Source of the DNA: a virus
Lineage: Duplodnaviria > Heunggongvirae > Uroviricota > Caudoviricetes
IMG/VR virus record: IMGVR_UViG_2713896897_000016
Location: 1 to 29,363 of that record
Reading direction: 5' to 3' (one strand)
DNA length: 29,363 bases
The first letter of the stretch is position 1. The number at the start of each line of letters is the position of its first letter. Below are positions 16,594-17,235 of this stretch, piece after piece. Both the position numbers and the translations under genes were made by a program. The notes under the pieces are model-generated. The model had not been told where the DNA came from, searched no databases, and saw only the letters and a list, made by a program, of their open reading frames with translations.

Positions 16594-17235
16594 TCAGTAA
16601 ATGCCAGAAGCCTGTAGCCAGCGTTTTACCGTCCGGGCTGACGGTGAATCGCTGTATTTTTCACTCAGTTTTGATACGACCGTGTTAACGAGAAATACCC
16701 GCGTACAGTTCGGGTGCGCGTCTATAACGTTGACCGCGTGTTGCAACGCCTCATGATAGTGTGGGTTGTGTGGCCTGCCGCCCTTTTTGCCGTTCCTGCG
16801 CCCGAAATCTCCGATTCTGAACGCTGATACCAGCGGGCGCATCAGCAACGTGAAAAACGCATAGGACACGCGCAAATCCCCTTTGAGTATCATGAATGCA
16901 CAACAAAACGCTGCCACACCGTGAGCATCAACAGATATTCGCATCTGGTCGCAAAACGGTTTAACACGAGAAACGAGATAGTCGAGAACTGGCGAGCCGG
17001 TACCGCCAACTACGTAATACCGGATCGCCTCTTCAAACGACACCGCCGTTACGTCTGTGTCGCCGAGTTGTTTCTTGGCGCGCGCCATTACGCGCTCGGA
17101 CATTTGAGTGAATATCTGTTCCGCACGTTCGCGGAACAGGGGCATAGTGATAGCCTGGGTGTCAAGTTTGCGCAGTAGTTCTACGCGCTCGATGAATTTT
17201 TCAGACCAATTTTCGTCATAGATACCGTGTTTCAT
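16594..17235 (-). CDS. hypothetical protein with C-terminal HTH-like segment
   Basis: Internal Met (MKHGIYDENWSEKF...) chosen because the upstream gene ends at 17297; C-terminus KKGGRPHNPHYHEALQ...ARTVKRWLQASG looks like a transposase-type HTH. Confidence 0.4.
   Translation of the reverse strand: MKHGIYDENWSEKFIERVELLRKLDTQAITMPLFRERAEQIFTQMSERVMARAKKQLGDTDVTAVSFEEAIRYYVVGGTGSPVLDYLVSRVKPFCDQMRISVDAHGVAAFCCAFMILKGDLRVSYAFFTLLMRPLVSAFRIGDFGRRNGKKGGRPHNPHYHEALQHAVNVIDAHPNCTRVFLVNTVVSKLSEKYSDSPSARTVKRWLQASGIY

Follow-up and report, generated by a model that had tools for sequence, protein, structure and literature searches.

A gene family at variable accessory positions of Enterobacterales prophages and satellites encodes a predicted two-domain protein with a putative DNA-binding tail

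The stretch of DNA studied here (the window) comprises the 29,363 nucleotides of the Caudoviricetes record IMGVR_UViG_2713896897_000016 of IMG/VR and is a lambdoid prophage. We consider one of its minus-strand genes, the product of which, a protein of 213 amino acids (aa), is called X, a name that we also use for the gene in the window and in its relatives. Read along the minus strand, X is preceded by O/P-type replication genes (about 19.6-21.1 kb), several small open reading frames (ORFs), an Ead/Ea22-like gene (17875..18411) and two small unknown ORFs, and it is followed by a 66-aa Rem-like ORF (16236..16436), a NinB-like ORF, an HNH endonuclease, NinG and a Q-like antiterminator. As the replication genes precede it and the nin genes come after it, X lies at the head of the nin region, in agreement with the first-pass annotation of this DNA, which had called it a nin-region protein.

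The longest ORF that can be drawn mechanically begins at a GTG at 17400 and would encode 268 aa; this version was rejected, as it overlaps the upstream ORF 17297..17605 and its start is not common to the homologs. All of these start where the ATG at 17235 lies, and the reading frame ends at a TGA (16594-16596). The start of the homologs, the Shine-Dalgarno sequence and the overlap with the upstream ORF all bear out the coordinates originally proposed, and the C-terminal tail quoted with them (KKGGRPHNPHYHEALQ...ARTVKRWLQASG) is present in the ORF translation. Between X and a 93%-identical ortholog in the E. coli STEC384 prophage, the nonsynonymous and synonymous substitution rates (dN and dS) are 0.031 and 0.37 over 208 codons, a dN/dS of 0.084; because purifying selection is this strong, X is a real gene and not a chance ORF.

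Several signals surround the gene (Table 1). All eight phage loci in the upstream alignment have in common an AATAAT element some 35 nt ahead of the ATG of X; it is the -10 element of the promoter-like site and doubles as the left arm of an inverted repeat (CGAATAAT ... ATTATTCG), the right arm of which abuts or covers the Shine-Dalgarno sequence. This leader repeat is found just upstream of the start of X in seven of seven lambdoid loci and is absent from the satellite and Mu-like loci described below. The leader RNA has a folding z-score of -1.4 in the window and of -2.0 to -6.7 in the relatives, and RNAalifold gives a 12-pair consensus stem with compensatory change at only two pairs; since there is so little covariation, the repeat appears to be kept mainly as sequence and could equally be a palindromic operator. 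A conserved repeat over the ribosome-binding site suggests that the translation or the transcription of X is itself controlled. On one reading, transcripts from its own promoter would lack the left arm and be translated, and early transcripts reading through from upstream would carry it and be silenced. Such silencing would be similar to the protection against outside transcription described for the insertion sequence IS10. Downstream, a spacer of 111-166 bp follows the stop codon of every homolog, and the relatives have at its beginning hairpins much stronger than that of the window (z-scores of -2.8 to -7.6, some with U runs).

Table 1. Position of X, of its predicted domains and of neighbouring features in the window.
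Feature	Position	Strand	Remarks
X coding sequence	16594..17235	minus	PHROG 5215 member, 213 aa
Shine-Dalgarno GGGGG	17241..17245	minus	5 nt before the ATG of X; read from the sequence
Leader inverted repeat CCTCGAATAA...TTATTCGGGG	17242..17289	minus	as RNA, would pair the Shine-Dalgarno sequence with the upstream arm
Sigma-70 promoter-like site TTCAAA-16-AATAAT	17279..17306	minus	predicted by consensus scan, 9/12
Hairpin ATAACCCC...GGGGTTAT	16560..16591	minus	directly after the stop codon; possible weak terminator
N-terminal all-alpha domain, aa 1-145	16801..17235	minus	AlphaFold2 model, six helices, acidic
Basic linker or arm, aa 146-159	16759..16800	minus	near-invariant G149-x-x-G152-G153-R154-P155
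C-terminal three-helix domain, aa 160-213	16597..16758	minus	putative helix-turn-helix
NUMOD4 + HNH_3 endonuclease ORF and NinB-like ORF	15159..15743, 15818..16174	minus	compared with lambdoid locus L001, 7314-7769

The family of X has no curated annotation. X matches PHROG 5215 over its full length (residues 6-208 aligned to positions 4-206 of the 213 in the profile, E=6.8e-30), which is its only PHROG assignment and a group annotated as being of unknown function. Pfam gave no match even at E<=10, NCBIfam gave only noise, including a 27-residue stretch at the N-terminus of an ISH3 transposase (E=0.12), and searches of the PDB with the single sequence, with a full-length profile and with a tail-only profile likewise gave only noise (interferon, TetR C-domains at E about 0.5 and designed helical repeats). 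Foldseek comparison of the X model with PDB and BFVD gave no match at E<=0.001, and Rfam found nothing in the window. The N-terminal ~150 aa, described as unrecognised when the gene was first annotated, are thus still so after Pfam, NCBIfam, PDB and fold searches. That annotation had also left room for the whole protein to be a member of a known nin-region family lacking a helix-turn-helix (HTH); no Pfam or PHROG profile of Ren, NinA-H, Roi or Rem matches X, for which Pfam returns nothing and PHROG only group 5215.

A word-indexed search of 5.8 billion proteins found four X clusters (and, with a 50-sequence profile, returned only 7 proteins, owing to the word index), and when 1.84 billion representatives were searched exhaustively with HMMER, 68 clusters came up at E<=1e-3, of which 38 at E<=1e-10, most of them full length and of 190-240 aa (about 210 aa). 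All named members are 'hypothetical proteins' of Enterobacterales, from the genera Escherichia, Citrobacter, Salmonella, Raoultella, Yersinia, Morganella and Providencia, and a protein identical to X is recorded from Escherichia albertii. The gene is rare: it occurs in 2 of 5,426 complete E. coli genomes and, by megablast and tblastn, in a single one of 50,697 phage records, vB_EcoM-705R4; two scans of genome contigs, and one of viral contigs with P0025, found no relatives.

When run with 4 sequences, AlphaFold2 was confident only for the last ~55 residues of X; with 50 homologs, the whole chain reached a predicted local distance difference test (pLDDT) score of 93.4 and a predicted template modelling (pTM) score of 0.72, and the layout of the protein, an N-terminal domain and a C-terminal tail joined by an arm, is predicted with high confidence. 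The helices of the N-terminal domain are placed at residues 12-30, 32-57, 67-75, 82-97, 102-118 and 121-151, and its best-kept residues are D25, C95, A124 and P134 (each 70-86% of 50 sequences). It matches nothing in Pfam, in PDB or by fold, and according to the model it is a novel helical part. Transmembrane segments were considered for the hydrophobic helices 102-118 and 121-138 and are unlikely, these helices being too short, interrupted by charges and packed in a confident globular model. In the arm, G153 is invariant, G149 and G152 are conserved in at least 90%, R154 in 78% and P155 in 84% of the same 50 sequences. The tail helices are predicted at 160-173, 179-193 and 200-209, with pLDDT of 85-98 in two independent AlphaFold2 runs, and the last of them (..P198-S-x-x-T/V-I/V-K-x-W206-L) is presumed to be a recognition helix. 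Arm and tail are the most conserved part of the family (A167, P198 and W206 at least 90%), and distant members retain the tail with an N-terminus that is widely different or longer. The mean net charge over the 50 sequences is -5.8 for the N-terminal domain, +3.7 for the arm and +4.2 for the tail. As regards conservation among relatives, which the first annotation had proposed to examine, the N-terminal domain and the tail are kept as a unit in about 68 clusters.

The same annotation had compared the tail with the short HTH of insertion-sequence transposases, and had seen in X either a DNA-binding regulator or a domesticated mobile-element fragment. Searched against Pfam (24,736 families), 44 family tails gave no significant match; ten of the 44 had weak matches, to DUF4817, an HTH family (four), HTH_32 (three), HTH_Tnp_Tc3_2 (two) and HTH_48 of Mos1 (one), with best E-values of 0.02-0.19 for HTH_Tnp_Tc3_2 (0.19 for the protein of the window), 0.034 for HTH_32 and 0.049 for DUF4817, far below the gathering scores. 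Ten weak matches within four related families are suggestive, as they are unlikely to be random, yet none is significant. Among the structural matches, assigned to residues 160-213 by aligned length alone, those of low root-mean-square deviation are the WHB domains of cullin and APC2, FlhC, plant GT-1, RPC62, the sigma-54 RpoN domain, small terminase, ColE2 Rep, Zeste and the mariner Mos1 transposase; TnsB, Tc3 transposase and CENP-B match over longer stretches with high deviations (4.3-9.3). In Hin, paired domains and Tc3, the minor groove is reached by a Gly-Arg-Pro arm that lies a few residues ahead of helix 1, and the GGRP arm of X would resemble these arms. The tail is probably a DNA-binding three-helix domain, with paired/Tc1-type HTHs as its nearest, weak relatives. 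The comparison with transposase HTHs has held in part, for the three-helix model and the family of weak matches, and has failed to gain a significant match.

It is improbable, in our estimation, that the tail is instead a protein-protein interaction module, for example one docking on a conserved host protein and making X an adaptor or inhibitor: arm and tail are consistently basic and the N-terminal domain acidic, the GGRP arm would be like those of Hin, paired and Tc3, and the weak matches recur specifically in DNA-binding HTH families. Still less can be said for X as a domesticated fragment of an insertion-sequence transposase, a reading that is close to refuted, even if it is transposase-type HTH domains in particular that the tail weakly resembles and an inverted repeat that could occlude the ribosome-binding site is reminiscent of the read-through protection of IS10. 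X has no DDE/DDD or other catalytic domain in Pfam or NCBIfam and ends right after the HTH, which is N-terminal in transposases and C-terminal here; no significant sequence match to any transposase was obtained; no terminal inverted repeats or target duplications surround the gene in 15800-18000, where only short repeats at chance level occur and none brackets X as transposon ends would; and the N-terminal domain and tail form a stable unit across the family. For want of a catalytic domain and of flanking repeats, and given its C-terminal HTH and conserved two-domain unit, X is not a mobile-element fragment. Of the two descriptions first offered, the fragment is thus dropped, and DNA binding is kept as what the tail would be expected to do.

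The surroundings of X were compared between elements. Homology of the STEC384 prophage to the window extends over 16025-17228 and breaks 7 nt before the start codon of X, and a DNA methyltransferase is found upstream of X there instead. The general position of X is the same in an E. coli metagenome prophage, a Salmonella prophage, a Citrobacter prophage remnant, where the order is hok, X, rem, and vB_EcoM-705R4, where it is divergent from an ImmA/repressor pair; the gene after X is a Rem-like ORF of 59-66 aa in five lambdoid lineages. In a second Salmonella genome, at the extreme end of a Mu-like prophage, X follows the gene for tail-fibre assembly. In the Citrobacter remnant (L006 3851-5241, 6702-6854), X directly follows the hok/gef toxin gene and lies less than 2 kb from a Kiwa system (KwaA-KwaB) beside an integrase, an observation that supports the view of this neighbourhood as one that collects accessory and defence cargo.

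Satellites carry the gene as well. Six satellites, with seven loci between them, have a P4-type integrase first, then X, AlpA, AntA/Bro/ORF6N and primase, and three of these (L009, L010 and L014) have capsid, protease and portal genes next, as is the layout of phage-inducible chromosomal islands (PICIs) that form capsids. An eighth locus (L011) has AlpA and PerC after X and an XRE/ImmA pair divergent from it; its X is 43% identical to that of the window over 97% of the length, which indicates that the whole protein moves between phages and satellites. The start of X overlaps the stop of int in L009, L014 and L020, implying co-transcription with int in those three satellites, and X is immediately upstream of alpA in all eight loci, with a spacer of 124-157 bp. 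E. coli satellites at yicC have the same backbone, with the int-alpA slot occupied by a DUF6387 protein or by one of 293 aa that is unrelated, and because unrelated genes alternate there on one backbone, we regard it as a variable cargo slot. The yicC satellites compared (L018 3103-3954, L019 3100-3981 and L013 8001-8678) share int, alpA and antA around three unrelated slot genes, for the DUF6387 protein, the 293-aa unknown protein and an X-family protein, and none of the three occupants matched a defence model. EcCIMP1_002, the gene between int and alpA of a characterised PICI, was considered and rejected as a relative, being a small unrelated protein of about 10% of the size of UvrB. Present or absent between closely related elements and placed at module junctions, the X family is in variable accessory positions.

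Two spacers next to X in the satellites contain repeats. The X-alpA spacer of a Providencia capsid-forming satellite (L009 2274-2418) has four AGTACT-centred repeats (TAAGTACTAAAA twice, GAAAGTACTTTC and ATAGTACTAAAAG), at which AlpA or the neighbouring X protein might bind. Between the XRE/ImmA pair and X of L011 (3500-3840) the motifs AACCGACCT / AACCAACC are repeated many times in direct and inverted orientation and have the look of operators or iterons.

Taking these results together, we hold with moderate confidence that X is a two-domain accessory cargo of the 'moron' type in Enterobacterales temperate phages and satellites, acting as a DNA-binding regulator or an exclusion factor. The protein is predicted to consist of an acidic six-helix domain, a basic GGRP arm and a basic three-helix domain of homeodomain-like or paired/Tc1 type; the tail would bind DNA by placing the arm in the minor and the last helix in the major groove, and the N-terminal domain would provide dimerisation or sense a partner. 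The resident element would make X from its own promoter in prophages and by co-transcription with int in several satellites, and X would act on host DNA, on incoming phage DNA or on a neighbouring promoter, as a transcription-type regulator or as an exclusion factor. Several results weigh against this. No HTH family is significant by sequence for X or for the tails in Pfam, nor did the profile search of PDB give any, and the link between helices 2 and 3 of the tail is a 6-residue loop, longer than the classical turn, so that the tail is not a textbook HTH. Promoter-like sites are no more numerous than shuffled sequences give, the candidate upstream of X being a consensus match only, and the hairpin after its stop codon (-16.3 kcal/mol, z -1.06, no U tract) is no better than shuffles. 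None of the PADLOC-DB 2.0 models matches X, any of four distant members of its family or either of the two alternative occupants of the slot.

Two narrower proposals overlap with the accessory-cargo reading, since both are special cases of it. According to the first, which we find rather unlikely, X is a single-gene anti-phage or superinfection-exclusion factor, its N-terminal domain sensing a phage component and its tail blocking DNA or a host machine. PICIs are reported to carry immune systems and accessory genes at their 5' or 3' ends (PMC11364771), and X is found at such defence-cargo positions, at the 5' end of PICIs, beside hok near Kiwa in Citrobacter and at a prophage end; moreover, the slot occupant varies between otherwise similar satellites and the N-terminal domain diverges much faster than the tail. 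Against this, accessory slots also hold regulators and virulence genes (PMC11773190), and X has no recognisable enzymatic or toxic domain and, like the alternative occupants, no PADLOC match.

The second proposal, to which we give a distinctly low probability, makes X a life-cycle regulator of its own element, as a repressor or helper-sensing switch at the alpA promoter in satellites, and in lambdoid phages at its own palindromic leader or the neighbouring LexA-controlled promoter. It would fit the constant place of X directly before alpA, the spacer between them having to hold the alpA promoter, as well as the position of X as first gene divergent from the XRE/ImmA pair in L011 and 705R4 and the conserved inverted repeat over its own ribosome-binding site and promoter; and whether Gram-negative PICIs have a repressor, and by which helper route alpA is activated, is an unsettled matter (PMC6092414). 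However, satellites of the same backbone have unrelated proteins in the slot, so that X cannot be a core regulator, the full-length protein (43% identity) also occurs in lambdoid prophages without alpA, and the X-alpA spacers showed no operator-like motif in common.

A broader and more speculative idea, for which we see only a slim chance, is that the family is a mobile module, for regulation or immunity, common to helper-type lambdoid phages and Gram-negative PICIs, with a new sensor fold in its N-terminal domain. A DNA-binding X next to int would then set or sense the state of the alpA promoter, or block the DNA of competing phages, and if this were true X would be part of the missing link in satellite quiescence and the response to the helper. 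Of most interest as a lead is the repeated occurrence of int-X-alpA in satellites. X recurs at the int-alpA junction of PICIs and capsid-forming PICIs and at accessory junctions of prophages, places where regulators and anti-phage cargo are kept, and if the predicted DNA binding is real it is a candidate exclusion or immunity factor, or a modulator of satellite induction, the control of which in Gram-negative bacteria is not yet clear (PMC6092414). If neither role holds, X is one more small HTH accessory protein of a prophage, and an ordinary one; the part of it that can be identified, a DNA-binding tail of generic character carried by a moron-like gene, is of a familiar kind.

Spacers against this phage lineage are present in type I-E CRISPR arrays of E. 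coli. One, found in two genomes, matches X of the window over 32/32 positions (16668-16699) with a 5' flank GCG, not the canonical AAG/ATG protospacer-adjacent motif (PAM). Of the 20 spacers in the array of E. coli S10 (L023), 7 have matches in related prophages; two fall within the L005 homolog of X (PAM ATG), and two match the window at 23311-23342 and 24976-25007 with 1-2 mismatches. Spacers against the L005-type X gene occur in 41 E. coli genomes, the gene itself in 0 of 5,426.

Further downstream of X, the window segment at about 15205-16025, which contains the NUMOD4 + HNH_3 endonuclease ORF, replaces 266 bp of the STEC384 prophage. The NinB-like ORF of the window is 118 aa long with a different C-terminus, that of the relative being 151 aa (YbcN family), and it looks like a homing-endonuclease insertion has truncated ninB.

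The only LexA/SOS box of the 29-kb window (CTGT-N8-ACAG, 16468-16483) lies just downstream of X, 32 nt upstream of the Rem-like ORF on the same strand, and near-consensus LexA boxes (e.g. TACTGTATAAATATACAG) are found at this place in the lambdoid loci L001, L006, L016 and L003. In being downstream of the replication genes and having in succession a hairpin, a LexA box with promoter and a small gene, this layout is like that of the dinI-gftA antirepressor module, controlled by LexA, in Gifsy prophages (PMC3121763); tblastn with one Rem-like protein found only three phage records and did not link the Rem-like proteins to the Gifsy antirepressors.

Compared with known systems, X belongs to PHROG 5215, a membership that explains nothing of its mechanism as the group has no functional annotation. 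It shares its neighbourhood, after the O/P and Ead/Ea22-like genes and before the Rem-like, NinB, NinG and Q-like genes, with the nin-region proteins of lambda and P22 (Ren, NinA-NinH, Roi, Rem, Ead/Ea22), and differs from them in that none of their Pfam or PHROG models matches it. To the HTH of Tc1/mariner and IS630 transposases (HTH_Tnp_Tc3_2, HTH_32, HTH_48, DUF4817; 1u78, 3hos) X has no significant match, and unlike that HTH its tail is C-terminal, on an unrelated helical domain, without catalytic core or transposon ends; the read-through silencing proposed for its leader would resemble the protection of IS10 from outside transcription. With phage morons and the 5' accessory genes of Gram-negative PICIs, X has in common that it is present or absent, stands at module junctions, has a hairpin or possible terminator after it and a candidate promoter, and in satellites, like the accessory genes of PICIs, it takes the int-alpA position where unrelated genes alternate; it differs from them in that its own promoter is only predicted and that it matches no defence family. 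Finally, the Stl/Rpr repressors of Gram-positive PICIs also combine an HTH with a variable, sensor-like domain next to int in a satellite, and X could in principle couple satellite to helper (PMC6092414), but Stl is a core gene divergent from the lytic genes, whereas X is co-oriented with int and alpA, has unrelated genes in its place in sister satellites, and is also carried by ordinary prophages.
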